Shown piece by piece: positions 26,001 through 58,927 of a stretch of DNA of 64,000 nt. Where the stretch lies: the NCBI GenBank assembly GCA_030681475.1, contig JAUXWT010000055.1:4914-68913 (forward strand), read 5' to 3'. The translations under genes and the position numbers were made by a program. The notes below the pieces were generated by a model, which saw only the letters and a program-made list of their open reading frames with translations, did not search any database and had not been told where the DNA came from. This DNA is from Bacteroidales bacterium (lineage in GTDB: Bacteria; Bacteroidota; Bacteroidia; Bacteroidales; FEN-979). Numbering within the stretch: position 1 is the stretch's first letter; every line of letters starts with the position of its first letter.

Positions 26001-26856
26001 GCAGATCCCGCTGGGTGAAATTGCCGCTATCAGCTACACGCGCGGGGCACAGATGATCCGGAGCGAAAACACTTTCCTTGTCGGCTATGTTATATTTGAC
26101 AAACTGGAGGGCAAAGCTGAAGTTGATGTGGTGGAAGAAGCGACATTAGTCTTACGGGATAAGATGGATGCAGGTAACATGACATTACCTCCCGGCGTGT
26201 CGTACAAATTTGCCGGCAATTACGAACATCAGATCAGGGCTACAAAACGCCTTGCCATTGTAATTCCCCTGAGTCTGATCGTGATCTTGCTGTTATTGTA
26301 CTTCCAATTCCGCACGGTGACCGCGTCATTTATACACTTTTCGGGTGTGTTTGTCGCCTTTGCAGGTGGTTTTATCATGCTCTGGTTATACGGACAAGGA
26401 TGGTTCATGAACTTTTCCATAGCCGGGATAAATCTTCGTGACCTCTTCCAGATGCATACCATCAACCTGAGCGTTGCGGTATGGGTCGGTTTTATCGCCC
26501 TGTTCGGAATTGCTACCAATGACGGTGTCATCATGGGTACATACATTCACCAGGTATTTGAACAAAGGCATCCGGCAACTGTTTTTGAGGTTCGTGAAGC
26601 CGTGGTGGCGGCGGGCTTGAAACGGGTCAGGCCGGCCATGATGACCACCGCAGTTGCAGTGATAGCCCTGTTACCGGTACTGACATCAACGGGAAAGGGG
26701 GCTGATATCATGGTGCCGATGGCCATCCCCACGTTTGGCGGCATGATCATCCAGGTGATGACCATTTTTGTAGTGCCGCTGTTCCAGTCCATATGGAGAG
26801 AAAGGGCTGTTGGTCGCAACAGTAAAACAGTAAATCAAACAAATAATTCGCAATAA
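23005..26856 (+). CDS. CusA/CzcA-family heavy-metal efflux RND permease, oversized (1283 aa)
   Basis: RND hallmarks throughout (AIPDIGDNQQIV, GIAIAIGVMVDIGIVDVENI, GIATNDGVIMGTYI). Extra hydrophobic block at ~24589-24950 and an extra periplasmic segment at ~25330-25565 relative to ~1045-aa pumps. Confidence 0.9.
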   Translation: MFFNRLVKYFLDNRLITFMFLIAFLAAGIVYAPFNWNTGFFPRDPVPVDAIPDIGDNQQIVATEWMGRSPKDIEDQVTYPLTTALLGIPGVSTIRSTSMFGMSFIYIIFKDKVEFYWSRSRILEKLNSLPSGTLPAGVQPTLGPDATALGQIYWYTLEGRNPKTGEPNGGWNPEELRTIQDFYVKYGLTTAEGVSEVASVGGFIKEYQVDLNPDALKAYGVSVMDVMEAVRKSNLDIGAETIELNNVEYIIRGLGYIKNLDDLDNSVIAVRNNIPVRIKDIGHVSYGPATRRGGLDKEGSEAVGAVIVARYGSNPMEVINNVKKKIKELEAGLPQKTLPDGTISKVTIVPFYDRTGLIKETIGTLEYALSHEILISIIVIIVLVMNMRASFIVAGLLPLGVLMTFILMRFFGVDANIVALSGIAIAIGVMVDIGIVDVENILRHLEMPENKGIRGKKLLQVIYLATTEVRAAVVTSIATTIVSFLPVFAMEAAEGKLFHPLAFTKTFALLSAFILGIVVLPTLVHIFFNIRFDRKKIRTIWNTGLIAAGIVFLIFWHAWPALALTAIGINNLLDHRWPEKRKEFPNYINIAITVFVAVYYLSIEWLPLGAHNSVLINFIFVAGIVAVILAALMSMVHFYEPILRWCLRNKWKFLMLPAITLLFGLMVWQGFDNIFGFVATGFEKVGWQSFRQTAFWQGPTKTFPGTGKEFMPSLNEGSFLLMPTSMPHTSIEKNLQYIETLDKRLSAIPEVDVAVGKWGRVNSALDPAPVQMFENTINYRSEYILNEDGHRMRFKVDRDDNYLLKNGSKYKVENEKFRVIPADSLIPDDKGEYFRQWRSHIKKPQDIWNEIVKVTNIPGLTSAPKLQPIETRLVMLSTGMRAPMGLKVYGPDLESIEQAGLVFEQALKEVPSVKATSVFYDRAVGAPYLEIKLNREAMARYGMTISDVQEVLQVAVGGMSLSNSVEGRERFPIRVRYARELRDNPEDLKRILIPAMNGTQIPLGEIAAISYTRGAQMIRSENTFLVGYVIFDKLEGKAEVDVVEEATLVLRDKMDAGNMTLPPGVSYKFAGNYEHQIRATKRLAIVIPLSLIVILLLLYFQFRTVTASFIHFSGVFVAFAGGFIMLWLYGQGWFMNFSIAGINLRDLFQMHTINLSVAVWVGFIALFGIATNDGVIMGTYIHQVFEQRHPATVFEVREAVVAAGLKRVRPAMMTTAVAVIALLPVLTSTGKGADIMVPMAIPTFGGMIIQVMTIFVVPLFQSIWRERAVGRNSKTVNQTNNSQ

Positions 26857-28163
26857 TGATGAAAATCAAGTCATATACAAAATTAATGATGGCTTTCATC
26901 GGGATCTTTAGCTGGTTTATTGCCAACGGTCAGAAACTACCTGATTCTCTTGATCAATATCTTGCAATTGCGGCGAAAAACAACCCCGCAGTTTTACAGA
27001 AATTTTATGAGTACCAGGCAGCTATGCAAAAAGCGCCTCAGGTTGGAAGTCTGCCCGATCCTGAATTGACCCTGGGTGTTTTGGTCAAACCAATGGAACT
27101 GGTGAACGGAAAGCAGGTAGCGGACATCCGGCTGATGCAGATGTTCCCCTGGTTTGGCACACTGAGGGCGGCAAAAGATGAGATGAGCCTGATGGCCAAT
27201 GCAAAATTCGAATCGTTCAGGGATGCCAAACTTCAGGTGTATTTCGATGTGAAACGTAACTGGTACGAATTGCAGAAAGTGAAGGAAAACATTCAAATCT
27301 CCGAACGAAATGTTGAAATATTAAAAGTTATTGAACGGCTTACCCTGGTTAAATTTAAGGCTATGCCGTCGGGTGGCAACAGTTCTTCATCTGGTGGTTC
27401 CGGATTGGCTGATCTGTACCGTATTCAGATCGACATCGGCGACCTTGAAAACAACATCGTACTATTAAAAACTCAGCAAATATCCATAGAAGCGCGTTTC
27501 AATGCCTTCCTGAACCGGCCGTCTGAGATGAAGGTCTATCTTCCCGAAACTATCCTTGCCGAATCCCCTGATATCTCGATTACGACGTTGACGGATAGCA
27601 TGTTTATGCACAATCCGATGCTTGAAATGCTCCTGTATGAGCAAAAATCGCTGGAAGCCCGGAAGAAAATGGTTACCCTGATGGGTTACCCGATGATAGG
27701 GCTGGGCGTGAATTATTCTGTGAACAGCAAAAACAGCATGTCCGGCTCACCTATGAACGGCAAGGATATGATCATGCCAATGGCGACCATTACTTTACCG
27801 ATCTACAGGGGAAAATACAATGCCATGAAATTTGAGGCAGAGTTGTTAAGATCAGCAAGTGAACAGGATTACCAGTCAACATCAAACACATTGAATACAG
27901 AATATTACGAAGCCATTCAACTATTCACGGATGGACAGCGTAGAATTACATTATACGACAGTCAAAGCGACCTTACAAAAAAAACACTTGATATCATGCT
28001 GAAAAATTTTACCACCGGCGGTACATCGCTGACAGATATTCTGCGTATCCGGCAACAACTGCTTGATTATGAGTTTAAACAAACAGAAGCGCTGACTGAT
28101 TACAACACGGCCATTGCATGGTTGCAGCGCCTGATTGCATCATCATCCATTCAAGAAAAATGA
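26856..28163 (+). CDS. TolC-family outer-membrane efflux protein
   Basis: Signal peptide, then two-repeat coiled-coil/beta-barrel OMF layout (LDQYLAIAAKNNP...; ...TDYNTAIAWLQRL). The ATG overlaps the pump's TAA by 1 nt. Confidence 0.8.
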   Translation: MMKIKSYTKLMMAFIGIFSWFIANGQKLPDSLDQYLAIAAKNNPAVLQKFYEYQAAMQKAPQVGSLPDPELTLGVLVKPMELVNGKQVADIRLMQMFPWFGTLRAAKDEMSLMANAKFESFRDAKLQVYFDVKRNWYELQKVKENIQISERNVEILKVIERLTLVKFKAMPSGGNSSSSGGSGLADLYRIQIDIGDLENNIVLLKTQQISIEARFNAFLNRPSEMKVYLPETILAESPDISITTLTDSMFMHNPMLEMLLYEQKSLEARKKMVTLMGYPMIGLGVNYSVNSKNSMSGSPMNGKDMIMPMATITLPIYRGKYNAMKFEAELLRSASEQDYQSTSNTLNTEYYEAIQLFTDGQRRITLYDSQSDLTKKTLDIMLKNFTTGGTSLTDILRIRQQLLDYEFKQTEALTDYNTAIAWLQRLIASSSIQEK

Positions 28164-28204
28164 AGACAATGAAGACTATGAAATCAATGAAGACAATGAA
28201 GGTA
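28160..28204 (+). repeat. Five tandem 9-nt units each starting with ATG (ATGAAGACA-type) at the adaptor gene start
   Basis: ATGAAGACA ATGAAGACT ATGAAATCA ATGAAGACA ATGAAGGTA, encoding MKT MKT MKS MKT MKV. Confidence 0.9.
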
Positions 28205-29818
28205 ATCTTATTTAACAAGTACCTCCTTTTTGGAATGTTTGCCATGGCAGGACTTTTTATTGGCTGGTTATTATTCCATTCTTCCGGCAAGGTGGATGAA
28301 AAACATGAACATACAACAGAGGAAGTTCAGTCAACCATTTGGACCTGTGCCATGCACCCACAAATACGCATGGATGCGCCAGGTGATTGTCCGATCTGTG
28401 GCATGGAGCTGATCCCATTGAATAACAACCCTGCTGCCATTGACCCGGAGGCGATCCAACTCACCAAAGAGGCGGCACAGCTTGCCAATGTATTAACTTC
28501 GGTGGTGACCCGGCAAAAACCGGTCAAAGAGGTTCGCTTGTATGGCAAGGTTCAGGCCGATGAACGGCTGTTACAAAACCAGGTGGCCCACATTCCAGGG
28601 CGTATTGAGAAACTGATGGTAAACTTCACCGGTGAAACTGTCAAAAAAGGTCAGACCCTGGCCTTGATATATTCCCCTGAATTGGTTACATCGCAGCAGG
28701 AATTGCTGGAAGCATCGAAATCAAAAGTAACTCAACCGGAGATTTATGAGGCTGCAAAGGAAAAATTGCGGCTTTGGAAGTTAACAGACGATCAAATTTC
28801 TGCCATCGAACGGTCAGGGAGTGTTCAAACAAATTTCGAGGTAGTTTCAACTGCCTCCGGTATCGTTTTATCAAGACGGGTAAACAACGGTGACTATATA
28901 TCACAAGGCACTGTTTTATATGATCTTGCCGATCTTTCCACTGTGTGGGTGATGTTTGATGCGTATGAGAGTGACCTGCCGTTTCTGAAAACGGGAGATA
29001 AACTGACCTTTACGATCCAGGCCATGCCCGGACAGAACTACACGGGTAAAATAATCTTTATTGACCCTGTAGTTGATGCGGCAACGCGTGTTTCAAAAGT
29101 AAGAGTTGAGATCAACAATCAAACCGGAAAATTAAAACCGGAGATGTTTGCCACGGGCATCGTCCATGCCAACATGACTGACTTTAAAGATAAAATGGTA
29201 ATCCCCCGTTCAGCCGTGTTGTGGACAGGAAAGCGTTCCATCGTGTATGTGAAGCAACCTGACAGCGACGAGCCGGTTTTTAAAATTCGCGAAATCGGGC
29301 TTGGACCTATGCTTGGCAACAGTTACATCGTTGCAGATGGACTGTTGGAAGGAGAAGAGATCGTCACGCAGGGGACATTCAGCGTGGATGCTGCAGCCCA
29401 ACTAGAAGGCAAGCCAAGCATGATGAATCCTTCGGGAGGAAAATTATCAACGATGCCCGGGATGGATATGCCGGGCGATGCAAAGCCATCGGATGGTCAA
29501 AAAATGGCCGGTATGGATACACCGGAAGATAATAAAATGGAGGACAACAAAATGATAAAACACGAAATGTTCGCTGTATCCGGAAATTGTGAAATGTGCA
29601 AAGACCGGATCGAAAAGGCTGCAAAATCGGTCAAAGGCGTGAGATCAGCTTCATGGGATGTAAAGACAAAGAAAATTCATATCGAATTCGATCCCAGGAA
29701 GTCAGATTTACAAACAATTCAAAAGGCAATTGCCAAAGCCGGACATGATAACGGAAAATTCAAGGCCGACGATAAAACGTACGAGAGTTTGCCGGAATGC
29801 TGTCATTACAGGAAGTAG
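28160..29818 (+). CDS. CusB-like RND periplasmic adaptor with N-terminal CPxCGM metal module, Met-rich segment and C-terminal HMA-like domain
   Basis: ATG at 28160 overlaps the OMF stop (ATGA). WTCAMHPQIRMDAPGDCPICGMELI, then an adaptor core. Met-rich segment MPGMDMPGDAKPSDGQKMAGMDTPEDNKMEDNKM. C-terminal GNCEMCKDRIEKAAKSVKGV...CCHY. Confidence 0.85.
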   Translation: MKTMKTMKSMKTMKVILFNKYLLFGMFAMAGLFIGWLLFHSSGKVDEKHEHTTEEVQSTIWTCAMHPQIRMDAPGDCPICGMELIPLNNNPAAIDPEAIQLTKEAAQLANVLTSVVTRQKPVKEVRLYGKVQADERLLQNQVAHIPGRIEKLMVNFTGETVKKGQTLALIYSPELVTSQQELLEASKSKVTQPEIYEAAKEKLRLWKLTDDQISAIERSGSVQTNFEVVSTASGIVLSRRVNNGDYISQGTVLYDLADLSTVWVMFDAYESDLPFLKTGDKLTFTIQAMPGQNYTGKIIFIDPVVDAATRVSKVRVEINNQTGKLKPEMFATGIVHANMTDFKDKMVIPRSAVLWTGKRSIVYVKQPDSDEPVFKIREIGLGPMLGNSYIVADGLLEGEEIVTQGTFSVDAAAQLEGKPSMMNPSGGKLSTMPGMDMPGDAKPSDGQKMAGMDTPEDNKMEDNKMIKHEMFAVSGNCEMCKDRIEKAAKSVKGVRSASWDVKTKKIHIEFDPRKSDLQTIQKAIAKAGHDNGKFKADDKTYESLPECCHYRK

Positions 29819-29820
29819 GG

Positions 29821-29841
29821 CAAATGACAAATGACAAGTAA
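29821..29841 (+). repeat. Short tandem heptamer repeat just after a stop codon
   Basis: CAAATGA CAAATGA CAAGTAA begins 3 nt after the TAG at 29816-29818. Confidence 0.6.
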
Positions 29842-29872
29842 CATTCATTATTAACAATTAAATCTAAAAACA

Positions 29873-30220
29873 ATGAAAACAAAAACCATTATGTTAGTAG
29901 CAGGTCTGTTGTTATTCAGCATGACTGCAATGTTTGCCAATGAGGCAAAAACAGAAAAAATCAAAGTTTACGGAAACTGTGGCATGTGCAAAAGCCGGAT
30001 TGAGAAGGCTGCCAAATCGGTGAAAGGCGTTATCAAGGCCACGTGGGATGATGAGGATGCCATGTTAACCGTGACCTTCGATGACACAAAGACAACAACC
30101 CTGAAGATCGAAGAGGCCGTTGCAAAGGTCGGACACGATACAGATCACACCAAGGCTGCCGACAAAGTTTACAATGCATTGCCAGGTTGTTGTCAATATG
30201 ACAGGCCCGAAAAAAAATAA
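29873..30220 (+). CDS. Secreted single-domain HMA-like metal-binding protein (periplasmic metallochaperone candidate)
   Basis: Signal peptide. GNCGMCKSRIEKAAKSVKGV...GHDTDHTKAADKVYNALPGCCQYD closely parallels the C-terminal domain of the preceding adaptor. Confidence 0.7.
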   Translation: MKTKTIMLVAGLLLFSMTAMFANEAKTEKIKVYGNCGMCKSRIEKAAKSVKGVIKATWDDEDAMLTVTFDDTKTTTLKIEEAVAKVGHDTDHTKAADKVYNALPGCCQYDRPEKK

Positions 30221-30247
30221 CATTGTACTATCCAGGAAGGAGCTATC

Positions 30248-30427
30248 ATGAAACTAATAAAAGCATATATCAGGCACAGGATGTTTGACAAGGTTTACCA
30301 TACCATAAGGGAAAATGTGTATAAAGTCAGGACTGACGAAGAGGTATATTGGTTATATAAGAAAAGGGCGATTTCGGGATCTATTTTGAAACAATTTAAA
30401 AATACATCAGCGTATATATATTCTTAG
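30248..30427 (+). pseudogene. Possible relic of a P-II-like gene (59 codons)
   Basis: My own translation: MKLIKAYIRHRMFDKVYHTIRE|NVYKVRTDEE... The N-terminus resembles the P-II start (MKkIeAiIkPfkLDdV) and VRTDEE resembles the P-II C-terminal RIRTGEE. The ~75 residues normally between them are missing. Confidence 0.25.
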
Positions 30428-30428
30428 C

Positions 30429-32696
30429 ATGAAACTTCACCACAAACCACATTCTCAAATGGATACAAAACAAGGGAAATACTACTGCCCCATGCATTGC
30501 GAAGGGGATAAAACCTACGATAAATCTGGTGATTGTCCGGTTTGCGGTATGCACCTGAAAAAGCTCGAGGCAATATCCAAACCTGGTATAATTTATACCT
30601 GCCCAATGCACCCCGAAGTGAAACAAGACCATCCCGGCAACTGCCCAAAATGTGGGATGACACTGGTTCCGGAAAAAGGTGCAGAAATAAGCGAAGAAGA
30701 AAATTCTTACGGGAAAATGGCGAAAAAATTCTGGATTGCTTTAGCATTTACTGTTCCGGTATTTCTCATTGCAATGTCAGATCTTATCCCTTTTCTTCAT
30801 CTCGAATCGATTGTTTCAAAAAAAATTCTGAATTGGGTTGGATTCGGTTTAGCCACACCTGTGGTTTTTTATTCAGGCTGGCAATTCTTTATACGCGGGT
30901 GGAGTTCCATACGAAGATGGTCACCCAACATGTGGACACTTATTTCAATCGGAGTGGGTGCAGCCTACCTTTTCAGTGTTTTTGCCCTGTTTTTCCCAGG
31001 AATATTTCCATCTCAGTTCAAAGATGCAAACGGTAATGTCCACCTTTATTTCGAGGCAGCAGCAATTATTTTAACTCTGGTGCTTCTTGGGCAGGTATTG
31101 GAACTTAGGGCACACAGTAAAACAAATTCAGCAATCAAAGCCTTACTTGGGCTGGTACCACCCGTTGCCCGGGTTATCAGGAACGGTACGGAAGAAGAAA
31201 TTCCATTGGAAGAGGTAAAGGCGGGCGACCTCCTGAAAGTAAAGCCCGGGGAGAAAATCCCAGTTGATGGGATGATCTTTAAAGGAGATGCGATCATTGA
31301 TGAAAGCATGATCACCGGTGAACCGATGCCTGTTGAAAAGTCAAAAGATGATAAAGTAACCGCAGGTACCATCAATGGCAAAACCGCCTTTGAAATGAAA
31401 GCCGAGAAAGTGGGCAGTGATACGCTATTGGCTCAAATCATCGAAATGGTAAACAAGGCCAGCCGGTCGCGAGCGCCTATCCAGAAACTGGCTGATACAG
31501 TGGCTAAATACTTTGTCCAGATCGTGATTTCCATAGCAATAATCACCTTTGCCATTTGGGCATACTGGGGCCCGGAGCCGGCTTATGTATATGCTTTTGT
31601 AAATGCCGTTGCCGTTTTAATCATTGCCTGTCCATGCGCTCTGGGACTTGCAACCCCCATGTCGATTATGGTGGGAACAGGCCGTGGAGCCCAATCCGGT
31701 GTGCTGGTTAAAGATGCCCGTGCGATTGAGGAGATGAATAAAGTTGATATCCTTATCATTGATAAAACCGGCACCATTACCGAAGGGAAACCCAGTCTGA
31801 ATGGTTTTAAATCCTTTGGTGAAATGAGTGACCTGGAAATATTGCAACTGGCAGCTTCTGTTGATTCCAATAGTGAACATCCGCTGGCTGATGCTATTGT
31901 GGCCGGCGCTAAGGCCAACAACCTGGAACTTCTGACCCTCGACAAATTTGAATCGGTAACCGGCAAAGGGGTACAGGCGATTTATCAGGGGGGGAAAATC
32001 GGGTTGGGAAACCACCGGCTGATTGACGATTTTAAAACTTCCCTGTCAAAAGAACAGAAGGAACTGGCAGAAACATGGCAAATGAAAGGGCAGACTGTCA
32101 TGTATCTGATCATCCAACAACAAATAGAAGGTATTGTAAGCGTTTCCGACAAAATAAAGGAGACCTCGTCCGATGCCATAAAGACCCTGCAGAAAATGGG
32201 GATAAGCGTCCATATGCTGACCGGAGATAATCCATTAACAGCTAAAACAGTAGCTGAAGAACTGGGGCTGGATGGTTTTATGGCCGATTGTTTGCCCGAA
32301 GACAAATATAACAAAGTAAAAACACTGCAGGAACAGGGCCACGTAGTTGCCATGGCCGGCGATGGAATCAATGATGCCCCGGCGCTCGAGCAGGCCAATG
32401 TAGGCATTGCCATGGGTACCGGTACCGATATTGCCATGCAGAGCGCTGAAATCACACTGGTAAAGGGAGATTTGAACGGGATTGTCAGGGCACGTGATCT
32501 AAGCATGAAGGTGATGAGGAACATTAAACAGAATCTGTTTTTTGCCTTTGTATATAATGCCTTAGGAGTTCCAATAGCTGCCGGAATTTTATTCCCGTTC
32601 TTCGGGATATTGCTTAGCCCGATATTGGCGGCTACAGCAATGAGTTTCAGTTCAGTATCTGTTATTGCCAACGCTCTGCGCCTGAGAAATAGATAA
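30429..32696 (+). CDS. copA: Copper/silver-translocating P1B-type ATPase with two N-terminal CPxCGM metal modules
   Basis: YYCPMHCEGD..GDCPVCGMHL and YTCPMHPEVKQDHPGNCPKCGMTLV. TGEP, ACPCALGLATP (CPC), DKTGTIT, GDGINDAP. TM7 YN and TM8 MSFSS are consistent with the P1B-1 class. Confidence 0.9.
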   Translation: MKLHHKPHSQMDTKQGKYYCPMHCEGDKTYDKSGDCPVCGMHLKKLEAISKPGIIYTCPMHPEVKQDHPGNCPKCGMTLVPEKGAEISEEENSYGKMAKKFWIALAFTVPVFLIAMSDLIPFLHLESIVSKKILNWVGFGLATPVVFYSGWQFFIRGWSSIRRWSPNMWTLISIGVGAAYLFSVFALFFPGIFPSQFKDANGNVHLYFEAAAIILTLVLLGQVLELRAHSKTNSAIKALLGLVPPVARVIRNGTEEEIPLEEVKAGDLLKVKPGEKIPVDGMIFKGDAIIDESMITGEPMPVEKSKDDKVTAGTINGKTAFEMKAEKVGSDTLLAQIIEMVNKASRSRAPIQKLADTVAKYFVQIVISIAIITFAIWAYWGPEPAYVYAFVNAVAVLIIACPCALGLATPMSIMVGTGRGAQSGVLVKDARAIEEMNKVDILIIDKTGTITEGKPSLNGFKSFGEMSDLEILQLAASVDSNSEHPLADAIVAGAKANNLELLTLDKFESVTGKGVQAIYQGGKIGLGNHRLIDDFKTSLSKEQKELAETWQMKGQTVMYLIIQQQIEGIVSVSDKIKETSSDAIKTLQKMGISVHMLTGDNPLTAKTVAEELGLDGFMADCLPEDKYNKVKTLQEQGHVVAMAGDGINDAPALEQANVGIAMGTGTDIAMQSAEITLVKGDLNGIVRARDLSMKVMRNIKQNLFFAFVYNALGVPIAAGILFPFFGILLSPILAATAMSFSSVSVIANALRLRNR

Positions 32697-32726: not shown

Positions 32727-32734
32727 TAAATTTG
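32727..32734 (+). promoter_or_regulatory. Candidate -7 promoter box (TAAATTTG) ahead of the XRE-cupin/aminomutase operon
   Basis: Matches TAnnTTTG, 45 nt upstream of the ATG at 32779. Confidence 0.3.
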
Positions 32735-32778: not shown

Positions 32779-33330
32779 ATGTTTAAATTAGGAGAGCGGA
32801 TCAGGAAAAGAAGAGAAAACCTGAATATCCAAACCAACGACCTGGCATTTCTAATTGGGGTGACGCCCAGTCTGATCTCACAGATTGAACGTGCAAAAGC
32901 ATTTCCTTCAATCATTACCCTTAAAAAAATAGCTGACGCACTGCAAACCAGTGTTGGTAACCTGATTGGTGAGAATGAAACGTTTTCAAACAACCCGCTG
33001 GTTTCGTTCGATGATAAACGGCTTGTTCAAACCAACGATGAGGGGACAACCCTGTATCTGCTTTCCAATCACGACCAGCATAAGCTTTTCGAACCACATT
33101 TACTGACTTTCCCGCCCGGATCTAATTCAACCGGTTTGATCAACTACGCTGTGGGCCAGAGTTTTTATTATCCAATCATCGGGAGTTTCAAAATTGAGAT
33201 AAATTTTAAAAGTTACATGCTGAGTACCGGGGATAGTTTTTATCTTAACTCAAACTCATATCACACAATTACCAATACAACCCAACAAGAAGCTCATATC
33301 TTATGGATCTCCGCAAATCCTATATTATAA
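32779..33330 (+). CDS. XRE-family HTH transcriptional regulator with C-terminal cupin domain
   Basis: LGERIRKRRENLNIQTNDLAFLIGVTPSLISQIERAKAFPSIITLKKIADAL is an HTH_3 domain. The C-terminal half has cupin-like beta strands (GDSFYLNSNSYHTITN). Confidence 0.8.
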   Translation: MFKLGERIRKRRENLNIQTNDLAFLIGVTPSLISQIERAKAFPSIITLKKIADALQTSVGNLIGENETFSNNPLVSFDDKRLVQTNDEGTTLYLLSNHDQHKLFEPHLLTFPPGSNSTGLINYAVGQSFYYPIIGSFKIEINFKSYMLSTGDSFYLNSNSYHTITNTTQQEAHILWISANPIL

Positions 33331-33363
33331 TCCAAATAAAGTCTGACAAAATAATTCTGAAAC

Positions 33364-34941
33364 ATGAACACTGTACTTTTAAATTCTGTTCCCGACAGCA
33401 CGATCATTCCAGTCCTTGATGTAAAAAAAGTAATCGATCGTTATGGTTACAATGAAGAAACTCAGAACATTTTCAACAGGGAAAATTTACTGCCCGCCGG
33501 TGTTTTGAACCGGTTGCATTCAACATATTCGCAATATACGAGAAAATGGGTTGCCGACGACTTAATCTTCACAGGTAAAGAGCGTTATGAAGGCTTGAAG
33601 GGATTCAGGGAAATCGTTGACTTTTTACTGCTGAATGGAATTGAGATTGGATTTATCGAAGAGCGTGAACTGTTTATCGAAGTTTACCGGTTCCTGGCGA
33701 CCAAACATATATTGAATACGATCGATTGGAAAAACTTCGAATATGATTCCCTGTTTCAATTGGTATTTCCTCAACCTGGAATGATCAATGCGGAGACTGT
33801 CAACAGTTACGTATCGGCGAAAAACGAAGCAGAGAGGATGGCCATCGTTGAAGATTATATAAAGAAAACGAACCCCCATGATGGAAAGCAAAAGCTAAAT
33901 AAACCATGGTTCGTGAATGATTTTGGCGATAAGGAGTTTATTGACGGAAGTCAGCATAAATATCCGCAATGCCAGCTTATTTTCGATAAAACGACGCAAA
34001 ACTGCTTTGCCTTTTGCACCTATTGTTTTCGGCATGCCCAGGTTCGCGGAGACCAGGATATGTTTGTTCAGACCGATATCGGGCAGATCCACGATTATCT
34101 GAAGCGTCACACTGAAATTACCGATGTGCTGATCACCGGCGGCGATGCCGGATTTATTTCCTACGACCGGTTGGAGCAATATGTCACCCCGATCATTGAA
34201 GATCCTGCCCTATTCCATATTAAAACGTTGCGGCTGGGTTCCAGGGCCCTGACCTTTTTTCCCGGGTTGATCCTGTCCGGATCTTACAAAAGGATGTTGG
34301 GACTGTTTGAAAAACTGACTTTAAACGGCATCCAGATTGTCTGGATGGCACATTTTTCCACCCCCCGCGAAGTTCTCAACCCCGGTACCATCGCTGCGAT
34401 CAGAAGATTAAAAGCCCACGGTGTGATTATTAAAAGTCAAAGTCCAATGATGAACCACATCAGTTTATTCACAGATGAAAATGGTGAAGTTGATATTGAC
34501 CGCTCAGCACAAAACTGGATAGATTTAGGCAACATCCTTGCGATGCTATCGGTTGGGTTCCACTCAATTTACTGCGCCCGTCCCACCGGGGAACACCATT
34601 ATTTCACAGCGCCGCTGGCCGATATAAATAAGATATTCTGTAAGGTTTACCGTTCCCTGGCCTCCATCAACCGGCCTTCCAGGTATATCACCATGACCTC
34701 TTCGGCCGGAAAAACTTCATTGTTGGGTACAACCCAAGTCGGTGGCGAAACCGCTTTTGTCTTAAAATTCAATGAAAGCAGGAACATGGAGTGGATGGAT
34801 AAGGTGTACCTGGCAAAATATGATGAAACAACCACAGTCATTGAAAAACTGAAACCTTTCGACACTGATGCATATTTCTATGAAAAAGAACTAAACCAAA
34901 TTGAATCTGACCTTCAGATGCAAATGGATACGAATGATTAA
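33364..34941 (+). CDS. KamA-family radical-SAM amino acid 2,3-aminomutase-like protein (525 aa, divergent)
   Basis: CFAFCTYCFRH (CxxxCxxC) preceded by HKYPQCQLIF (cf. RYPDRVLL). ITGGDAG SAM-binding motif. SSAGKTS as candidate PLP-lysine context. Longer N-terminus, and no C-terminal Cys cluster seen. Confidence 0.8.
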   Translation: MNTVLLNSVPDSTIIPVLDVKKVIDRYGYNEETQNIFNRENLLPAGVLNRLHSTYSQYTRKWVADDLIFTGKERYEGLKGFREIVDFLLLNGIEIGFIEERELFIEVYRFLATKHILNTIDWKNFEYDSLFQLVFPQPGMINAETVNSYVSAKNEAERMAIVEDYIKKTNPHDGKQKLNKPWFVNDFGDKEFIDGSQHKYPQCQLIFDKTTQNCFAFCTYCFRHAQVRGDQDMFVQTDIGQIHDYLKRHTEITDVLITGGDAGFISYDRLEQYVTPIIEDPALFHIKTLRLGSRALTFFPGLILSGSYKRMLGLFEKLTLNGIQIVWMAHFSTPREVLNPGTIAAIRRLKAHGVIIKSQSPMMNHISLFTDENGEVDIDRSAQNWIDLGNILAMLSVGFHSIYCARPTGEHHYFTAPLADINKIFCKVYRSLASINRPSRYITMTSSAGKTSLLGTTQVGGETAFVLKFNESRNMEWMDKVYLAKYDETTTVIEKLKPFDTDAYFYEKELNQIESDLQMQMDTND

Positions 34942-34983
34942 TAAAACCGGAAATAAATCAATACAAGTTATTTTTAAGAAAAT

Positions 34984-35700
34984 ATGATAAATAAGATTTT
35001 TCAGTCTGCTGCTGATGCGGTTGAAGATATTTCAGACGGTTCTGTTGTGATGATCAGCGGATTCGGTGAAGCCGGGAGTCCGATAGAACTGATCCATGCG
35101 TTGGTTGACCGGGGTGCGAAAAACCTTACCGTGGTGAGTAACAACACCGGCAGCGGCAATGTTGGACTTGCCGCGTTGATTGAGAACAGGCAGGTCGGCA
35201 AAATGATCTGCTCCTTTCCGAGAACGGCTAATTCTACTGTATTTCCCGAGCTATATCGCAAGGGGGAGATAGAACTGGAACTGGTACCCCAGGGAACCCT
35301 TGCAGAACGGATCAGGGCAGGAGGCGCGGGGATCCCTGCGTTTTATACCCCCACTGCAGTTGATACACCGCTTTCCGAAGGAAAGGAGGTGCGTATCTTT
35401 AATGGTATCAGATATATCCTGGAATCCGCTATAAAAGCTGATTTCGCCCTTGTTAAGTGCAAATCTGCCGACCGTCTTGGTAATCTGATCTATAACAAAA
35501 CGGCAAGAAATTTTGGGCCGGTCATGTGCATGGCCGCGAAGACCTGCATTGTTCAGGCCAGGGAAATAGTTGAGCAGGGTAAAATAGATCCGGAAGCGGT
35601 CGTCACGCCAGGTATTTTTGTAACGAGGATTGTTGAAATCCCGCATCCTGCCCACGAATCACAACTTGTATTGGAAAACAGGAGGTACCCATGGATATAG
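34984..35700 (+). CDS. 3-oxoacid CoA-transferase, subunit A
   Basis: DGSVVMISGFGEAGSPIELIHAL, QGTLAERIRAGGAGIPAFYTPT. Typical family I CoA-transferase alpha subunit. Confidence 0.85.
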   Translation: MINKIFQSAADAVEDISDGSVVMISGFGEAGSPIELIHALVDRGAKNLTVVSNNTGSGNVGLAALIENRQVGKMICSFPRTANSTVFPELYRKGEIELELVPQGTLAERIRAGGAGIPAFYTPTAVDTPLSEGKEVRIFNGIRYILESAIKADFALVKCKSADRLGNLIYNKTARNFGPVMCMAAKTCIVQAREIVEQGKIDPEAVVTPGIFVTRIVEIPHPAHESQLVLENRRYPWI

Positions 35701-36350
35701 TAAAAACGAACAGCGGATGGGACCGCAACCAGATGGCACAGAAAGTCGCCCTCGATATTCCCGATGGCTCTTATGTCAATCTTGGGATAGGACTTCCTGA
35801 ACTCGTGGCAGCATATGTGCCTGAAGGCAGGGAGGTTATTTACCATACCGAGAACGGTCTTCTTGGAATGGGTTCAGCGCCGGAAACCGGTTTCGAAGAT
35901 CCTGAATTGATAAACGCCGGAAAAAAAGCGGTCACGGCAATTCAGGGCGCTTGCTTTTTTCACCATGCAGACAGTTTTGCCATGATTCGCGGCGGCCATA
36001 TTGACATTTGTGTCCTTGGCGCCATGCAGGTTTCGGAAGAGGGCGACCTTGCAAACTGGTCAACCGGTGAACCTCACTCCATCCCTGCGGTTGGAGGCGC
36101 GATGGATCTCGTGAGCGGAGTGAAAACGATATTTATCATTACCCAGCATGTCACCAAAGATGGCGAGCCGAAAATAGTCGGCAAATGCACCTATCCCCTC
36201 ACCGGGAAAAAGGTCGTTGACCGGATCTATACCGATCTGGCCATCATCGATGTAACGGATGCCGGACTATTCGTTAAGGAACTCGCACCCGGTATTACCT
36301 TTGAATATGTACAGAAAAATACCGGTGTTTCACTTAACCGTTATTTCTAA
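35691..36350 (+). CDS. 3-oxoacid CoA-transferase, subunit B
   Basis: YVNLGIGLP and the active-site context HTENGLLGMG (ENG glutamate). Overlaps subunit A by 10 nt. Confidence 0.85.
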   Translation: MDIVKTNSGWDRNQMAQKVALDIPDGSYVNLGIGLPELVAAYVPEGREVIYHTENGLLGMGSAPETGFEDPELINAGKKAVTAIQGACFFHHADSFAMIRGGHIDICVLGAMQVSEEGDLANWSTGEPHSIPAVGGAMDLVSGVKTIFIITQHVTKDGEPKIVGKCTYPLTGKKVVDRIYTDLAIIDVTDAGLFVKELAPGITFEYVQKNTGVSLNRYF

Positions 36351-36394
36351 ATATCTGAAATACAATAGACTATAGAACACAAACCTTTCTACCC

Positions 36395-37747
36395 ATGGGA
36401 TCATCTTACCAAAACTCAAAAAAGGATTTACTAAATCAAAATGAATTATATCACCAGGCTTGTGAGGTAATTCCGGGAGGTATCAGCAGAAATACGGTTT
36501 ACAGGGAACCCCATCCCAGCTATGCAGATTACGCCGAAGGATGTTATATCACCGATATTGAAGGAGCCCGGCGTATTGACTTTGCTAACAATATGGCTTC
36601 CCTGATCCATGGACATGCCCACCCAGCCGTCGTGGATGCGGTAATGGAACAGGTTAAAAAAGGAACCGCTTACATGATGGCGACTGAAGCCGAAGTGCGG
36701 TTTGCTCAATTGTTATGTGACAGGGTTCCAGGATTTGAAAAAATCCGGTTTGTCAATTCGGGTACCGAGGCTGTTATGGCTATGATCAAAGCATCGAGAG
36801 CTTTTACGGGACGGACTAAAATTGCCAAAGCCGAAGGGGCTTATCATGGAACTTATGATTTCGCGGAGGTGAGCCAGACTTCGAACCCGGCAAACTGGGG
36901 AGATATCAGCAAACCCAATAGTGTCCCTCTCGTGAAGGGAACTCCCCAGGGAGTTTTAAATGATGTGATTATTTTTCCATTCAATGATGTCGGACGCACA
37001 CTGGCCATACTTGATCAGTTTGCCGATCAGATTGCCTGCGTCATGATAGATCCTGTACCGCACAGGGTCGGTTTGTTTCCGGGAGACCCTGAATTTCTGG
37101 ATGCCTTGTACAAATGGACACGAAAAAATGATGCCCTGCTGGTATTTGATGAAGTTGTTACGTTTCGCGTAAACTATGGCGGGGCTCAGGAAAATTGTCA
37201 TGTCAGGCCCGACCTTACCGCACTTGGGAAGATCATTGGGGGAGGGTTCCCGGTTGGCGCGTTGGCCGGGAGGTCGGATGTCATGAAGGTGATGGATCAG
37301 CGGGAAAGCCCTTTGCTTTATTCACTGTCCGGAACTTTTTCTGCGAACCCCATTTCCCTGACAGCAGGTCGCGTTACGATGGAGTTATTTAACAGGGAGG
37401 CTGTCAATCAATTGAATGAACTCACCCGGACCTCTATTGACCAGTTACGTGAAGCAATTAAGATCGCAGATGTTCCTGTCTCAATAACAGGAGCCGGTTC
37501 GATGTTTCGGTTTCATTTAAAAGCCTCTCCTCCAAAATCTTACCGTGAAACTTATCAAAATAAAAAAGAGCTGGAAATCATCAATTCATTTATTGATCAT
37601 CTTTTTCTGAAAGAGAATATTTTGGTGATCAATACCGGCTCGTGCATGTTTTCCACGGCGCTGACCAGGCATGAAATCGATAGACTTACGGAGGGCGTGT
37701 TAAATGGTCTCAGGAAGATCAAACCTGAGCTTGAAAAATTATCATAA
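36395..37747 (+). CDS. Class III (HemL/GSA-aminomutase-like) PLP-dependent aminotransferase
   Basis: VIPGGISRN, NSGTEAVMAMIKASRAFTGR, VFDEVVTFR, LGKIIGGGFPVGA (PLP lysine context). Confidence 0.8.
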   Translation: MGSSYQNSKKDLLNQNELYHQACEVIPGGISRNTVYREPHPSYADYAEGCYITDIEGARRIDFANNMASLIHGHAHPAVVDAVMEQVKKGTAYMMATEAEVRFAQLLCDRVPGFEKIRFVNSGTEAVMAMIKASRAFTGRTKIAKAEGAYHGTYDFAEVSQTSNPANWGDISKPNSVPLVKGTPQGVLNDVIIFPFNDVGRTLAILDQFADQIACVMIDPVPHRVGLFPGDPEFLDALYKWTRKNDALLVFDEVVTFRVNYGGAQENCHVRPDLTALGKIIGGGFPVGALAGRSDVMKVMDQRESPLLYSLSGTFSANPISLTAGRVTMELFNREAVNQLNELTRTSIDQLREAIKIADVPVSITGAGSMFRFHLKASPPKSYRETYQNKKELEIINSFIDHLFLKENILVINTGSCMFSTALTRHEIDRLTEGVLNGLRKIKPELEKLS

Positions 37748-37756
37748 AACGTTGTA

Positions 37757-38965
37757 ATGATGAGAAACGAAGTATTTATCTGCGATGCGATCAGGACCCC
37801 GGTCGGAAAATATGGTGGTTCACTCTCCACGGTACGAACAGACGATCTTGCCGCAATTCCCCTTAAAGCATTGATGGAGCGGAACCCGGGTATTGATTGG
37901 AACGCTGTTGATGATGTGCTGATGGGTTGTGCCAACCAGGCTGGCGAAGACAATAGAAATGTAGCGCGGATGGCGCTGCTGCTGGCAGGGTTTCCCCCGA
38001 CTATTTCCGGTGCGACCATAAACAGACTGTGTGGTTCGGGGATGGATGCTATCGGATCTGCTGCCAGGACTATCCGCGCCGGTGAAGCCGATTTAATTAT
38101 CGCCGGAGGGGTTGAAAGCATGACCAGGGCTCCTTTTATAATGGCAAAAGCCTCAGGCGCTTTTTCCCGGTCAGTTGAAGTTTCTGACTCTACCCTTGGA
38201 TGGAGATTCATCAATAAATTGCTTCAAAAGCAATATGGCACTGATTCCATGATGGAAACTGCTGAAAATATTGCATCAGATATCAATATAAACAGGGTAG
38301 ATCAGGATAAATTTTCATATCTTAGCCAGGAAAAATATAACCAGGCCCACCGCAATGGTTGGCTTGCCGCAGAGATTGTCCCGGTCATAGTACCCCATGA
38401 AAAAGGCGTTCCGGTGATCTTTGATAAAGATGAGCACCCAAGGATGACAACGCCGGAGAAATTAGCCACATTAAAGCCGCTGACCCGAGAAAACGGAACC
38501 GTCACCGCAGGAAACTCTTCAGGGATCAACGACGGAGCTGCAGCGCTGATCATTGCCTCCGGATTGGCCGTAAAAAGATATAATCTGACCCCAATGGCCA
38601 GGATATTGGGTATGGATACTGCAGGTGTCCTGCCACGCATTATGGGCATGGGCCCGGTGTCTGCAACAAAAAAACTCCTAGGCAGGCTTGAATTGAAAAT
38701 GGATGATCTGGATATTATTGAACTGAATGAGGCATTTGCTGCGCAGGCTTTGGGTTGTATCCGTGAATTTTGCCTTGCCGATGATGATCACAGGATAAAT
38801 CCGCTCGGGGGCGCCATAGCTTTCGGACATCCTTTGGGAATGAGCGGTGCACGACTTGTTACGACCGCCAGTCATCAGTTGCAGCGATCAGGCCTTAATA
38901 AAGCGCTTTGCACGATGTGTATCGGTGTGGGACAGGGCATTTCAATGATCATTGAAAGGGTTTAA
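37757..38965 (+). CDS. Acetyl-CoA C-acyltransferase (thiolase)
   Basis: NRLCGSGMDAI (nucleophilic Cys), GNSSGINDGAAA, NEAFAAQ, GGAIAFGHPLGMSGARL, CIGVGQGI. Confidence 0.9.
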   Translation: MMRNEVFICDAIRTPVGKYGGSLSTVRTDDLAAIPLKALMERNPGIDWNAVDDVLMGCANQAGEDNRNVARMALLLAGFPPTISGATINRLCGSGMDAIGSAARTIRAGEADLIIAGGVESMTRAPFIMAKASGAFSRSVEVSDSTLGWRFINKLLQKQYGTDSMMETAENIASDININRVDQDKFSYLSQEKYNQAHRNGWLAAEIVPVIVPHEKGVPVIFDKDEHPRMTTPEKLATLKPLTRENGTVTAGNSSGINDGAAALIIASGLAVKRYNLTPMARILGMDTAGVLPRIMGMGPVSATKKLLGRLELKMDDLDIIELNEAFAAQALGCIREFCLADDDHRINPLGGAIAFGHPLGMSGARLVTTASHQLQRSGLNKALCTMCIGVGQGISMIIERV

Positions 38966-39088
38966 GTATTATCTGACCTGCGCATCCTTCGCCAGGAGTA
39001 AATGAAATTGACGTGGAGATCAGAAACCACTTGAAAAAACGGGGCATATTCCGAAAAGCCAGATGAGTAGGAAACCAAAAACAATAAT

Positions 39089-39940
39089 ATGATTAATTCG
39101 GATATTAATATTGATGGAATGCAAAAGGCATTAAAGAAAGGGCCTTTGAGGTCATGGCTGATTGTTGGCGCAATTATCCTGGTTATACTGCTATTCAAGC
39201 CCTGGGTGCAGATTGGCGCAGGTGAAAGGGGTATCGTACTTAATTTTGGCGCTGTTCAGGATAAAGTATTGGACGAAGGGATGCATTTCCGGATTCCTAT
39301 AATGCAGACAGTCATCATCATGGATGTCAAGGTTCAAAAGACACAGACCGATGCATCATCGGCATCCTCCGACCTGCAGGATGTGACCTTGTCGGTTGCG
39401 CTGAACTACCACATCATTCCCGACCGGGCAAACATTGTTTACCAAACCATCGGGGTTCATTTCAAAGAGCGGATCATCGATCCCGCGATCCAGGAGGTAA
39501 CCAAAGCGGTATCAGCCAAGTATTCGGCAGAGGAGCTGATTACTAAAAGACCTGCAGTTAGCGAGGCAATGAAAGAGTCCCTTACAGAAAAACTGATGGC
39601 CTCAAATATAGCAGTTGATGCGGTTTCTATCGTAACATTTAGCTTTTCGAAGGTATTTATGGATGCGATTGAAGCCAAACAGACAGCAGAGCAACATGCA
39701 CTGAAGGCCAAAAGAGACCTGGACCGGATCAAGATTGAGGCAGAGCAGACTATTGCTGCAGCAACCGCAGAGGCTGAAGCATTACGGTTACAAAAAATGA
39801 ATATTTCACCCGACCTTATTGAGCTCAGAAAAATAGAGGCAAACCTGAAGGCGATCGAGAAATGGAATGGTATCCTACCACAGGTAACTGGTGGCGGCGC
39901 TGTGCCGTTCATTGGCGTGAGTGATCTGCAGAAGAAATAG
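39089..39940 (+). CDS. SPFH/band-7 (prohibitin-like) membrane protein
   Basis: N-terminal TM, GERGIVLNFGAVQDKVLDEGMHFRIP, and a C-terminal coiled coil rich in A/E/Q. Confidence 0.8.
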   Translation: MINSDINIDGMQKALKKGPLRSWLIVGAIILVILLFKPWVQIGAGERGIVLNFGAVQDKVLDEGMHFRIPIMQTVIIMDVKVQKTQTDASSASSDLQDVTLSVALNYHIIPDRANIVYQTIGVHFKERIIDPAIQEVTKAVSAKYSAEELITKRPAVSEAMKESLTEKLMASNIAVDAVSIVTFSFSKVFMDAIEAKQTAEQHALKAKRDLDRIKIEAEQTIAAATAEAEALRLQKMNISPDLIELRKIEANLKAIEKWNGILPQVTGGGAVPFIGVSDLQKK

Positions 39941-39968: not shown

Positions 39969-40211
39969 ATGGTTAGATATATCATTCTAATTGCAATTGC
40001 TGGTCTCGTAGGAGCTATTTTAGCCAAACCAAAAGGGCGAAGCCAGATTTTGTGGTTCCTGCTATGCGCAATTGTTCCGCTTCTGGTAATTGCAATCGCG
40101 CTGCTTCCCCCGGTAGTTACAAAGGGATATACGAAAAGATGTCCACACTGTGCCGAGATCATCAGGGAGGATGCAACGCTATGCAAATACTGTGGAATGG
40201 GTGTTCAGTGA
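39969..40211 (+). CDS. Small membrane protein with C-terminal zinc-ribbon (CPHC...CKYC)
   Basis: Two hydrophobic helices, then CPHCAEIIREDATLCKYCG. Confidence 0.5.
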   Translation: MVRYIILIAIAGLVGAILAKPKGRSQILWFLLCAIVPLLVIAIALLPPVVTKGYTKRCPHCAEIIREDATLCKYCGMGVQ

Positions 40212-58860: not shown

Positions 58861-58927
58861 TCCGCAGAAAAACATCGCCTTGACTAATCATAACCCATTG
58901 GTTCCTGATTTACAAAAAAACTACTGT

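Follow-up and report, generated by a model that had tools for sequence, protein, structure and literature searches.

Which amino acid is consumed by an operon that joins a distant relative of lysine 2,3-aminomutase (LAM) to a class-III aminotransferase, a two-subunit coenzyme A (CoA) transferase and a thiolase? The question is raised by six genes at positions 32779-38965 of a 64,000-nt stretch of contig JAUXWT010000055.1 from a Bacteroidales bacterium (hereafter the window, at its full length). Comparisons of the encoded proteins and of their genomic neighbourhoods lead us to consider it rather probable that the operon breaks down lysine-derived 2-aminoadipate to succinate and acetyl-CoA. On balance we also lean towards the broader view that its 525-aa KamA-like protein would found a new class of radical S-adenosylmethionine (SAM)/pyridoxal phosphate (PLP) enzymes, and that the cassette would represent a lower branch of lysine degradation that is independent of oxygen and so far undescribed.

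Translation of the open reading frames (ORFs) of the window reproduced the six forward-strand genes at the coordinates given in the initial annotation (Table 1), together with all five junctions of 33, 42, -10, 44 and 9 nt from the first gene to the sixth. The motifs on which that annotation had relied, namely the radical-SAM and GGD motifs, the PLP-lysine context, the ENG motif of the CoA-transferase and the catalytic contexts of the thiolase, are all legible in the translations. The classical lysine-fermentation genes kamDE, kdd, kce and kal, already reported as missing, were not found anywhere in the 64-kb window.

Enzymes of the proposed lower pathway

The end of the pathway is indicated by the last gene of the operon, whose product is, by sequence criteria, an orthologue of the 3-oxoadipyl-CoA thiolase PcaF. 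It scores 653 bits against the PcaF equivalog TIGR02430 (cutoff 597) and 673 against NF006551 (cutoff 605), shares 61.5% identity along its whole length with the crystallised PcaF of Pseudomonas putida (6PCA) and 61.7% with 8GQH, and reaches about 550 bits against PcaF-type structures versus about 300 against acetoacetyl-CoA thiolases. The catalytic Cys/His/Cys contexts, described earlier as complete, read LCGSG, GHPLG and CIGVGQG. There is strong evidence from these comparisons that the pathway ends in the cleavage of 3-oxoadipyl-CoA to succinyl-CoA and acetyl-CoA.

Both subunits of the CoA-transferase exceed the cutoffs of their family models, with 343 bits for subunit A against TIGR02429 (cutoff 128.5) and 303 bits for subunit B against TIGR02428 (cutoff 243.55). 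The best Protein Data Bank (PDB) match of subunit A is 3CDK, the A subunit of a succinyl-CoA:3-ketoacid CoA-transferase (221 bits), and acetate/acetoacetate-type A subunits score just 162-165 bits. The gene for subunit B overlaps the preceding one by 10 nt. Its product shares 60-66% identity with proteins that carry the generic label of 3-oxoacid CoA-transferase B subunit, and the expected catalytic glutamate is read in the motif HTENG. We propose that the pair would act as a succinyl-CoA:3-oxoadipate CoA-transferase.

The aminotransferase was described as a class-III enzyme resembling glutamate-1-semialdehyde aminomutase (GSAM), which agrees with its match to Aminotran_3 (196 bits) and with HemL (TIGR00713) as its best NCBIfam model; the score of 336 bits lies under the HemL cutoff of 527. 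Among PDB entries its best match, at 362 bits, is 6K8H, a Sphaerobacter omega-transaminase for beta- and gamma-amino acids (PMC10589169). ForI comes next, followed by GSAM enzymes at 242 bits or less, so that 6K8H outranks every GSAM structure; aromatic beta-transaminases are also among the relatives in this comparison, beta-phenylalanine aminotransferase reaching 196 bits. The enzyme is proposed to be a 3-aminoadipate:2-oxoacid beta-transaminase.

A divergent KamA-like protein

The KamA-like protein, annotated as a hypothetical protein in NCBI, has zero family matches in a Pfam scan and scores 70.1 bits against the KamA family model TIGR00238 (cutoff 199.2), with only residues 189-367 aligned. 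Its scores are still lower against the models for lysine 2,3-aminomutase (TIGR03820, 61 bits, cutoff 525), EpmB (TIGR03821, 47 bits, cutoff 369), glutamate 2,3-aminomutase (TIGR04368, 58 bits, cutoff 650) and arginine 2,3-aminomutase (TIGR04468, 61 bits, cutoff 600). Profile placement, which had been suggested for exactly these enzymes, therefore leaves the protein at 47-61 bits, far below every cutoff, and outside both the EpmB clade (47 bits) and the osmolyte clade of AblA (61 bits). An exhaustive search of 1.84 billion representatives recovered its family as one full-length cluster at 50% identity (741 bits), separated by a gap from the next relatives, which are at most 39% identical and score no more than 306 bits.

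The relation to LAM becomes visible at the level of profile and structure. Alignment of the family profile with LAM, for which the query sequence is identical to the PDB 2A5H chain, gave an hhalign probability of 98.2% over LAM residues 31-307. With the AlphaFold (AF2) model (predicted template modelling score 0.81; mean predicted local distance difference test, pLDDT, 77.9) as query, Foldseek returned 2A5H as the top match (E=1e-12, 421 columns, 19% identity), all further matches being generic radical-SAM cores with E>=1.8e-3. The radical-SAM motif CFAFCTYC supplies C214, C218 and C221, ITGGDAG contains the GGD of residues 259-261, and SSAGKTS contains K450. In a wider MAFFT alignment these residues and R223 correspond to C125/C129/C132, GGD, K337 and R134 of LAM, and across 81 sequences of the family no variation occurs at C214/C218/C221, R223, G259-G260-D261 or K450. 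The extra length noted at the outset, about 100 aa relative to LAM, is borne out and takes the form of an N-terminal elaboration of about 100 aa; likewise, no cysteine occurs downstream of K450, that is, the C-terminal Zn-Cys cluster is missing.

The two enzymes part in the recognition of the side chain. We take R134 of LAM to bind the alpha-carboxylate of the substrate, K337 to carry PLP, and Asp293 and Asp330 to hold the epsilon-ammonium group of lysine. In the MAFFT alignment the position of D293 is occupied by R406, invariant in the clade, and that of D330 by T/S443; as aligned, both of the aspartates that bind the lysine side chain are lost. Since the catalytic residues are kept and both aspartates replaced, the machinery for a 2,3-amino shift would be retained and recognition of a lysine-type side chain lost, and the protein looks like an aminomutase with a substrate other than lysine. 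We propose that it is an L-2-aminoadipate 2,3-aminomutase. R406 was considered as a diagnostic carboxylate binder and rejected: the registers differ, hhalign placing LAM D293 opposite A405, which adjoins R406, and arginine is common here in uncharacterised KamA-like relatives.

Databases label members of the family either as hypothetical proteins or, wrongly, as lysine 2,3-aminomutase. Relatives about 30% identical, annotated under the latter name, were observed on megaplasmids of Rhodococcus and Mycetohabitans (L092 7010-8326 and L093 6905-8284) within clusters of nonribosomal peptide synthetase (NRPS), polyketide synthase (PKS) and ATP-grasp genes, and the Rhodococcus cluster also holds a gene with a saccharopine-dehydrogenase domain. 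This sister group probably comprises a large set of uncharacterised mutases forming beta-amino acids, and is likely mis-annotated. A search of plasmids retrieved no orthologues of the KamA-like protein, just such relatives at about 30% identity.

Conservation, spread and regulation of the cassette

When one genome per species was scanned, relatives of the KamA-like protein were present in at least 465 species genomes from many phyla; close homologues, 64-71% identical and about 510-570 aa long, number more than 1,300 and are essentially unnamed. The 80 best loci served for a survey of gene order. The arrangement KamA-like gene, CoA-transferase A, CoA-transferase B, aminotransferase, thiolase, on one strand, is kept at every one of the 61 loci with sufficient contig, the other 19 contigs stopping short of the expected position of the thiolase; CoA-transferase A is found in 76 and CoA-transferase B in 75 of the 80 loci, and the five proteins are 54-83% identical across phyla. 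Conservation of the gene set, for which a test across Bacteroidota had been proposed, is thus seen in all 61 sufficient loci and reaches well past that phylum; the five genes form a conserved unit and not a chance grouping. The hosts include Bacteroidales, Cloacimonadota, Ignavibacteriota, Balneolales, Acidobacteriota, Elusimicrobia, Krumholzibacteria, Clostridia, SAR324 and Desulfuromonadales, as well as cultured marine Gammaproteobacteria (Shewanella atlantica, S. corallii, Photobacterium sagamiensis, P. obscurum, P. atrarenae, Gallaecimonas, Aliivibrio and Motiliproteus). These are anaerobes or facultative anaerobes, a lifestyle that suits an oxygen-labile radical-SAM enzyme.

In P. obscurum (L079, 3827-6425, -) two integrase-like genes arranged in tandem, recognised by reading their translations and not by hidden Markov models, are situated about 3.5 kb from the cassette and its LysR regulator gene, a context consistent with recent horizontal acquisition. 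The five-gene order kept across phyla and this copy near integrase-like genes suggest that the cassette moves as a module.

The regulator is the variable part. The XRE-cupin protein of the window scores 69 bits against the PuuR model, below its cutoff of 211, and probably serves, in certain lineages only, as the operon's small-molecule-responsive regulator. The initial annotation placed the operon behind this regulator, which holds for the window and for some lineages in which an orthologue lies directly 5' of the cassette; the link does not extend to the family as a whole, with an orthologue in just 14 of the 80 loci and a divergent LysR gene in its place in Proteobacteria. Apart from one locus with an AsnC/Lrp-type gene (L091), the proteobacterial contexts offered the divergent LysR gene only, with no transporter or other clue to the substrate. 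Within the window a candidate -7 element matching TAnnTTTG, which we take to be the Bacteroides promoter -7 consensus, lies 45 nt 5' of the start codon of the regulator and might tentatively mark the promoter. Counts from a scan for sigma-70 promoters and terminators fell within the range of shuffled sequences and are uninformative, and no riboswitch or other RNA was found 5' of the operon, the sole RNA match being a DUF805 motif past its end.

Neighbouring genes for the conversion of lysine to 2-aminoadipate

Clustering of all flanking ORFs revealed no other broadly conserved gene; in all, 86 loci were inspected for recurrent neighbours. The sole recurrent metabolic neighbours of the cassette are enzymes that make 2-aminoadipate from lysine, in five arrangements (Table 1) involving lysine-ketoglutarate reductase (LKR), saccharopine dehydrogenase (SDH) or piperideine-6-carboxylate (P6C) dehydrogenase. 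In Cloacimonadota the best PDB matches of the neighbours are saccharopine reductase (314 bits) and the LKR domain of human AASS (265 bits). The P6C dehydrogenase exceeds its model cutoff of 730 bits in the Prolixibacteraceae-type loci (798 bits), in L091 (784 bits) and in the SAR324 locus L024 (818 bits). P6C dehydrogenase makes 2-aminoadipate, and its place within the operon would therefore make sense if the cassette consumes 2-aminoadipate. Neither kamDE nor kdd, kce or kal was a recurrent neighbour in the 86 loci, and kamDE, kdd and kce, whose presence just outside the equivalent region had been envisaged, did not occur at any orthologous locus examined. Genes for the CCA-adding enzyme, MiaA, carbonic anhydrase and the like were set aside as functional partners, as they reflect housekeeping synteny within Bacteroidales.

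Table 1. Operon features in the window (positions of the window) and arrangements of lysine-to-aminoadipate genes around orthologous cassettes
Locus	Feature or arrangement	Position	Strand	Remarks
Window	Candidate Bacteroidota-type -7 promoter element, TAAATTTG (TAnnTTTG)	32727..32734	+	Read in sequence
Window	Regulator with XRE-family helix-turn-helix and cupin domains, PuuR-like architecture	32779..33330	+	183 aa; HTH_3 45 bits, Cupin_2 33 bits
Window	Divergent KamA-family radical-SAM/PLP enzyme	33364..34941	+	525 aa; TIGR00238 70 bits, LAM fold
Window	3-Oxoacid CoA-transferase subunit A (PcaI/ScoA family)	34984..35700	+	238 aa; TIGR02429
Window	3-Oxoacid CoA-transferase subunit B (PcaJ/ScoB family)	35691..36350	+	219 aa; TIGR02428, HTENG
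Window	Class-III GSAM-like aminotransferase	36395..37747	+	450 aa; Aminotran_3
Window	3-Oxoadipyl-CoA thiolase, PcaF orthologue by sequence	37757..38965	+	402 aa; TIGR02430
Cloacimonadota L010, L011, L012, L022	SDH-type and LKR-type genes directly 5'; amino-acid permease directly 3'			Gaps of 12-13 nt on the 5' side
Prolixibacteraceae-type Bacteroidota L052, L059, L077	After the thiolase: P6C dehydrogenase, LKR, SDH			LKR in L077 only
L073	Divergent SDH 5' of the cassette
L091	AsnC; omega-aminotransferase, KamA-like gene, CoA-transferase A, CoA-transferase B, aminotransferase, P6C dehydrogenase
SAR324 L024	P6C dehydrogenase, DadA-like oxidase, ATP-binding cassette transport system of Lys/Arg/Orn type, hydroxylysine-phospholyase-type gene			About 7 kb 5'

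Several of these loci carry further genes of related function. In the SAR324 locus the P6C dehydrogenase gene (41-1264, +) adjoins the C-terminal part of a PRK06148-type protein (1402-2928, +), a family in which a class-III aminotransferase is fused to a kinase and which resembles hydroxylysine kinase and phospholyase; this hints that 5-hydroxylysine could be a further source of 2-aminoadipate for the cassette. A Sunxiuqinia metagenome-assembled genome (MAG; L077, 19915-21399, -) has a second, different KamA-family gene directly after the saccharopine genes on the 3' side of the cassette, encoding 494 aa with 144 bits against TIGR00238 (cutoff 199) and a long insertion opposite residues 396-416 of the protein from the window. 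In a Krumholzibacteria MAG (L071) a PaaI-like hotdog thioesterase is encoded directly 3' of the thiolase (15116-15523, +), and a second KamA-like ORF, 22% identical, occupies 1643-3052 (-). Five genes 3' of the cassette in a Clostridia MAG (L055, 15707-20801, +) encode a homoisocitrate/isopropylmalate-dehydrogenase-like protein, a member of the HMG-CoA-lyase family, a family-III CoA-transferase and the large and small subunits of a homoaconitase-family enzyme, which could be another route for C6/C7 dicarboxylates (2-oxoadipate/homocitrate).

The proposed route

Starting from 3-oxoadipyl-CoA and tracing back through the CoA-transferase, the beta-transaminase and the 2,3-aminomutase, one arrives at a single alpha-amino acid, 2-aminoadipate. 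In the forward direction the KamA-like enzyme would shift the amino group of 2-aminoadipate from C2 to C3, giving 3-aminoadipate, and the class-III aminotransferase would pass this beta-amino group to a 2-oxo acid, giving 3-oxoadipate. The PcaIJ/ScoAB-type transferase, assigned to its family by the comparisons above, would then convert succinyl-CoA and 3-oxoadipate to 3-oxoadipyl-CoA, which the PcaF orthologue is predicted to cleave to succinyl-CoA and acetyl-CoA. The succinyl-CoA released would re-prime the CoA-transferase; with this recycling the module would need no further enzyme, which fits its portability. The net conversion would be 2-aminoadipate + 2-oxo acid + CoA -> succinate + acetyl-CoA + amino acid, under the control of a lineage-specific regulator (XRE-cupin here, LysR or AsnC-type elsewhere). 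L-2-aminoadipate, the presumed input, is the compound in which the saccharopine and piperideine-6-carboxylate branches of lysine degradation end, and no step would need oxygen. We infer every substrate in this route; the gene set, its synteny, the PcaF orthology, the enzyme families, the LAM fold and residues and the neighbourhood links are matters of observation.

The sequence of reactions suggested initially, from alpha-amino acid through beta-amino acid, 3-oxo acid and 3-oxoacyl-CoA to thiolysis, appears to be the most parsimonious reading of the conserved cassette. We go beyond its accompanying statement that the substrate cannot be read from the sequence: a thiolase of PcaF type, together with the saccharopine and P6C-dehydrogenase genes that recur within the operon, makes the substrate inferable as 2-aminoadipate, one of the candidates listed at that stage. 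In a variant of the same hypothesis, possible but not the version we favour, CoA transfer precedes transamination, as for the 3-aminobutyryl-CoA aminotransferase Kat discussed below; the gene order of mutase, transferase, transaminase and thiolase would allow it. Bearing on this order of steps, the aminotransferase is far nearer to the free-acid beta/gamma-transaminase than to Kat.

Several observations weigh against a route from lysine-derived 2-aminoadipate. Sequence comparisons of the CoA-transferase fit PcaIJ, acting on 3-oxoadipate, and ScoAB, acting on acetoacetate, alike. Just about 10 of the 86 inspected loci have lysine-to-aminoadipate genes close by, none occurs in the 64 kb of the window itself, and the operon of L091 has no thiolase. 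The arginine at the D293 position is also found in many of the KamA-like relatives of about 30% identity (as RD there versus RP in the clade), and, being common to uncharacterised relatives, it indicates by itself neither a substrate nor an acidic side chain. The active-site loops 222-233 and 407-413 are modelled at pLDDT below 50, and divergence as deep as 19% identity to LAM may leave room for chemistry besides the 2,3-amino shift.

The last point leads to the alternative that survives best, though we judge it unlikely: the KamA-like protein would perform other radical-SAM/PLP chemistry, for example on 2-aminopimelate or a D-amino acid, within a pathway leading all the same to 3-oxoadipyl-CoA or a comparable dicarboxylyl-CoA. 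The remoteness of the protein from every characterised clade, its N-terminal elaboration of about 100 aa, the lack of a Zn-Cys cluster and the low confidence of the modelled active-site loops would all be accommodated. Such chemistry is harder to reconcile with the alpha-carboxylate arginine, GGD and PLP lysine kept at the LAM spacing, with LAM as the only strong structural match, and with a downstream beta-transaminase-like enzyme, which requires a beta-amino (or omega-amino) donor.

A route from glutamate is improbable in our estimation. It would lead through beta-glutamate, 3-oxoglutarate and 3-oxoglutaryl-CoA to malonyl-CoA and acetyl-CoA, or else consume environmental beta-glutamate. The score against the glutamate 2,3-aminomutase equivalog (58 bits versus 650) speaks against it, as do the 61.5% identity of the thiolase to PcaF, whose substrate is a C6 compound, and the recurrent in-operon partners, which yield 2-aminoadipate and not glutamate. 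Moreover, 3-oxoglutarate is very unstable, and we know of no thiolysis to malonyl-CoA. What it would explain is the loss of both lysine-binding aspartates with a basic residue at the D293 position, where glutamate 2,3-aminomutase presumably has a lysine; the thiolase type also suits a dicarboxylic substrate, and the ubiquity of glutamate would account for most loci without a dedicated transporter.

More improbable again is a route from lysine itself through beta-lysine, 6-amino-3-oxohexanoate and its CoA ester to 4-aminobutyryl-CoA and acetyl-CoA, with the saccharopine genes as a co-located parallel route. Lysine 2,3-aminomutases, including EpmB, are the best-known enzymes of the KamA family, only the glutamate and arginine enzymes differing in substrate; the neighbours of the cassette are lysine-catabolic, and related systems exist in the beta-lysine "beta-keto" route of Pseudomonas B4 and the kamA-yodT operon of Bacillus subtilis. 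Against these parallels stand the replacement of both Asp293 and Asp330 of LAM, the 61 bits against the LAM equivalog (cutoff 525), the lack of an acetyltransferase or deacetylase in the cassette and a PcaF-type thiolase, made for dicarboxylyl-CoA; a P6C dehydrogenase in the operon, too, would be out of place unless the cassette received its product. Operation in the biosynthetic direction, from succinyl-CoA and acetyl-CoA to 2-aminoadipate for saccharopine-type lysine synthesis or a secondary metabolite, is very improbable: each of the four reactions belongs to a type that can in principle run backwards, LYS9-/LYS1-type genes, biosynthetic in fungi, flank the Cloacimonadota cassettes and distant KamA-like relatives sit in NRPS/PKS clusters, but three arrangements have the oxidative P6C dehydrogenase, and not alpha-aminoadipate reductase, as their partner within the operon, the LKR best matches the catabolic LKR domain of AASS, patchy distribution, mobility and LysR/AsnC regulators typify catabolic modules, and no NRPS or PKS lies near the cassette in any of the 86 loci.

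Relation to known systems

The proposed breakdown of 2-aminoadipate borrows from several known pathways. With the LAM/KamA family the KamA-like protein shares CxxxCxxC, GGD, the equivalent of R134, a PLP lysine at the spacing of K337 and the whole-chain fold; it departs from that family in its scores (47-70 bits versus cutoffs of 199-650) and in the replacement of Asp293 and Asp330 by Arg and Thr/Ser. The lower beta-ketoadipate pathway is echoed by the PcaF orthologue, the PcaI/ScoA and PcaJ/ScoB families and the closed succinyl-CoA loop, whereas genes for aromatic ring cleavage are missing, the hosts are largely strict anaerobes, and 3-oxoadipate would be derived from an amino acid by the successive action of an aminomutase and a transaminase.

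The saccharopine/P6C pathway is linked to the cassette by LKR, SDH and P6C dehydrogenase genes, which share an operon with it in several lineages, and its product is the proposed substrate. Known continuations from 2-aminoadipate lead through 2-oxoadipate to glutaryl-CoA, or to D-2-hydroxyglutarate; unlike these, the cassette would first shift the amino group from C2 to C3 and then use beta-keto cleavage.

The kamA-yodPQRST operon of B. subtilis combines kamA with CoA-transferase subunits, and the beta-lysine route of Pseudomonas B4 uses an N6-acetyl-beta-lysine transaminase (EC 2.6.1.65). A KamA-family gene, a class-III aminotransferase, two CoA-transferase subunits and the passage from a beta-amino to a beta-keto compound are common to these systems and the cassette; going by their descriptions, the cassette is set apart by having no acetyltransferase or deacetylase and by the addition of a PcaF thiolase. 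KamA of B. subtilis, which shares 60% identity with 2A5H, is a lysine aminomutase of the canonical kind, and KamA and YodT are both SigE-dependent, with a physiological role that is unknown and YodT uncharacterised (PMC6522883).

A variant of lysine fermentation provides a further parallel. Kat, a 3-aminobutyryl-CoA aminotransferase, is a HemL-like class-III enzyme that converts a beta-amino to a beta-keto compound, which a neighbouring thiolase cleaves; the system occurs in Cloacimonadota and Bacteroidota of anoxic habitats, and Kat uses a CoA thioester, acting after KamA, KamDE, Kdd and Kce (Perret et al. 2011, PMC3149608). We retrieved the Kat locus (CLOAM0809) through a primer published in that study (PMC3149608). 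Identity of the cassette with this locus was rejected, with Kat 28% identical to the aminotransferase, the Kat-linked thiolase 39% identical to that of the cassette, and differing N-termini of AtoAD. The two systems share a HemL-like class-III enzyme acting on a beta-amino compound next to a thiolase; KamDE, Kdd and Kce are absent from the cassette.

In the full-text literature, subscription-only journals not being covered, no 2-aminoadipate 2,3-aminomutase, no catabolic route through 3-aminoadipate and no description of the cassette was found. The suggestion that the route is undescribed stands in so far as we encountered no earlier description of the pathway or of the enzyme specificity; the "beta-keto" principle as such has precedents in Kat and Pseudomonas B4. 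Every enzyme type involved is a known one; what appears new is the aminomutase clade, with the specificity predicted for it, and the entire pathway.

Other features of the window

An RNA motif of the DUF805 type (Rfam family RF03081), matched with 72 bits versus a gathering score of 51.1, occupies 39008-39077 (+) in the 123-nt gap between the thiolase gene and an SPFH/Band-7 gene (39089-39940), which is followed by an 80-aa membrane/zinc-ribbon-like ORF (39969-40211). The motif marks a separate unit 3' of the operon, and its partner is the SPFH gene rather than a DUF805 gene.

Directly 5' of the operon lies a heavy-metal efflux cluster (23005-32696, +), probably for copper or silver. It comprises a CusB-like adaptor with a Met/His-rich region and a C-terminal HMA-like domain (28118-29818), a small HMA protein (29873-30220), a CopA-type P1B ATPase with several N-terminal CxxC motifs (30429-32696) and a second pump of the resistance-nodulation-division (RND) type. 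The other RND transporter, encoded at 12933-17321 (-), is a 1462-aa protein (ACR_tran, 947 bits) with an OEP/TolC-like domain fused at its C-terminus (residues 1274-1459), and is adjoined by an HlyD/CusB-type adaptor (11653-12921, -); such a fusion of pump and channel is unusual.

Two large secreted proteins carry Ice_binding-like domains, one at 115-2034 (+) with 243 bits and a type-IX secretion tail, the other at 5521-7392 (+) with 204 bits and a PKD-like domain. Two large adjacent ORFs of 753 and 517 aa (56599-58860 and 58880-60433, both +), with no Pfam match at E<=1e-5, have a Y_Y_Y hybrid sensor kinase gene on one side and a gene for a GH31 glycosidase on the other, in a region rich in glycoside hydrolases (GH2, GH92 and GH31).

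Biological implications

If the proposed route is correct, both strict and facultative anaerobes would be able to dispose of 2-aminoadipate without the 2-oxoadipate dehydrogenase/glutaryl-CoA dehydrogenase route, gaining from each molecule one acetyl-CoA, hence ATP, and succinate. The substrate range of radical-SAM aminomutases would extend to a C6 dicarboxylic amino acid, and an unnamed, highly conserved protein family, with about 65-70% identity between phyla and present in at least 465 species, would acquire a function. Natural enzymes linking 2-aminoadipate, 3-aminoadipate and 3-oxoadipate would be relevant to the production of bio-adipate, levulinate and beta-amino acids; to our knowledge, enzymes of 3-aminoadipate have been merely postulated by metabolic engineers. 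The existence of cultured hosts makes the prediction open to direct testing.

At the level of communities, the branch would be widespread in anoxic sediments, in digesters and among marine facultative anaerobes, and metabolic models of Bacteroidales, Cloacimonadota, Ignavibacteriota and marine Shewanella and Photobacterium would improve with its inclusion. The degradation of an amino acid would thereby be joined to the beta-ketoadipate pathway.

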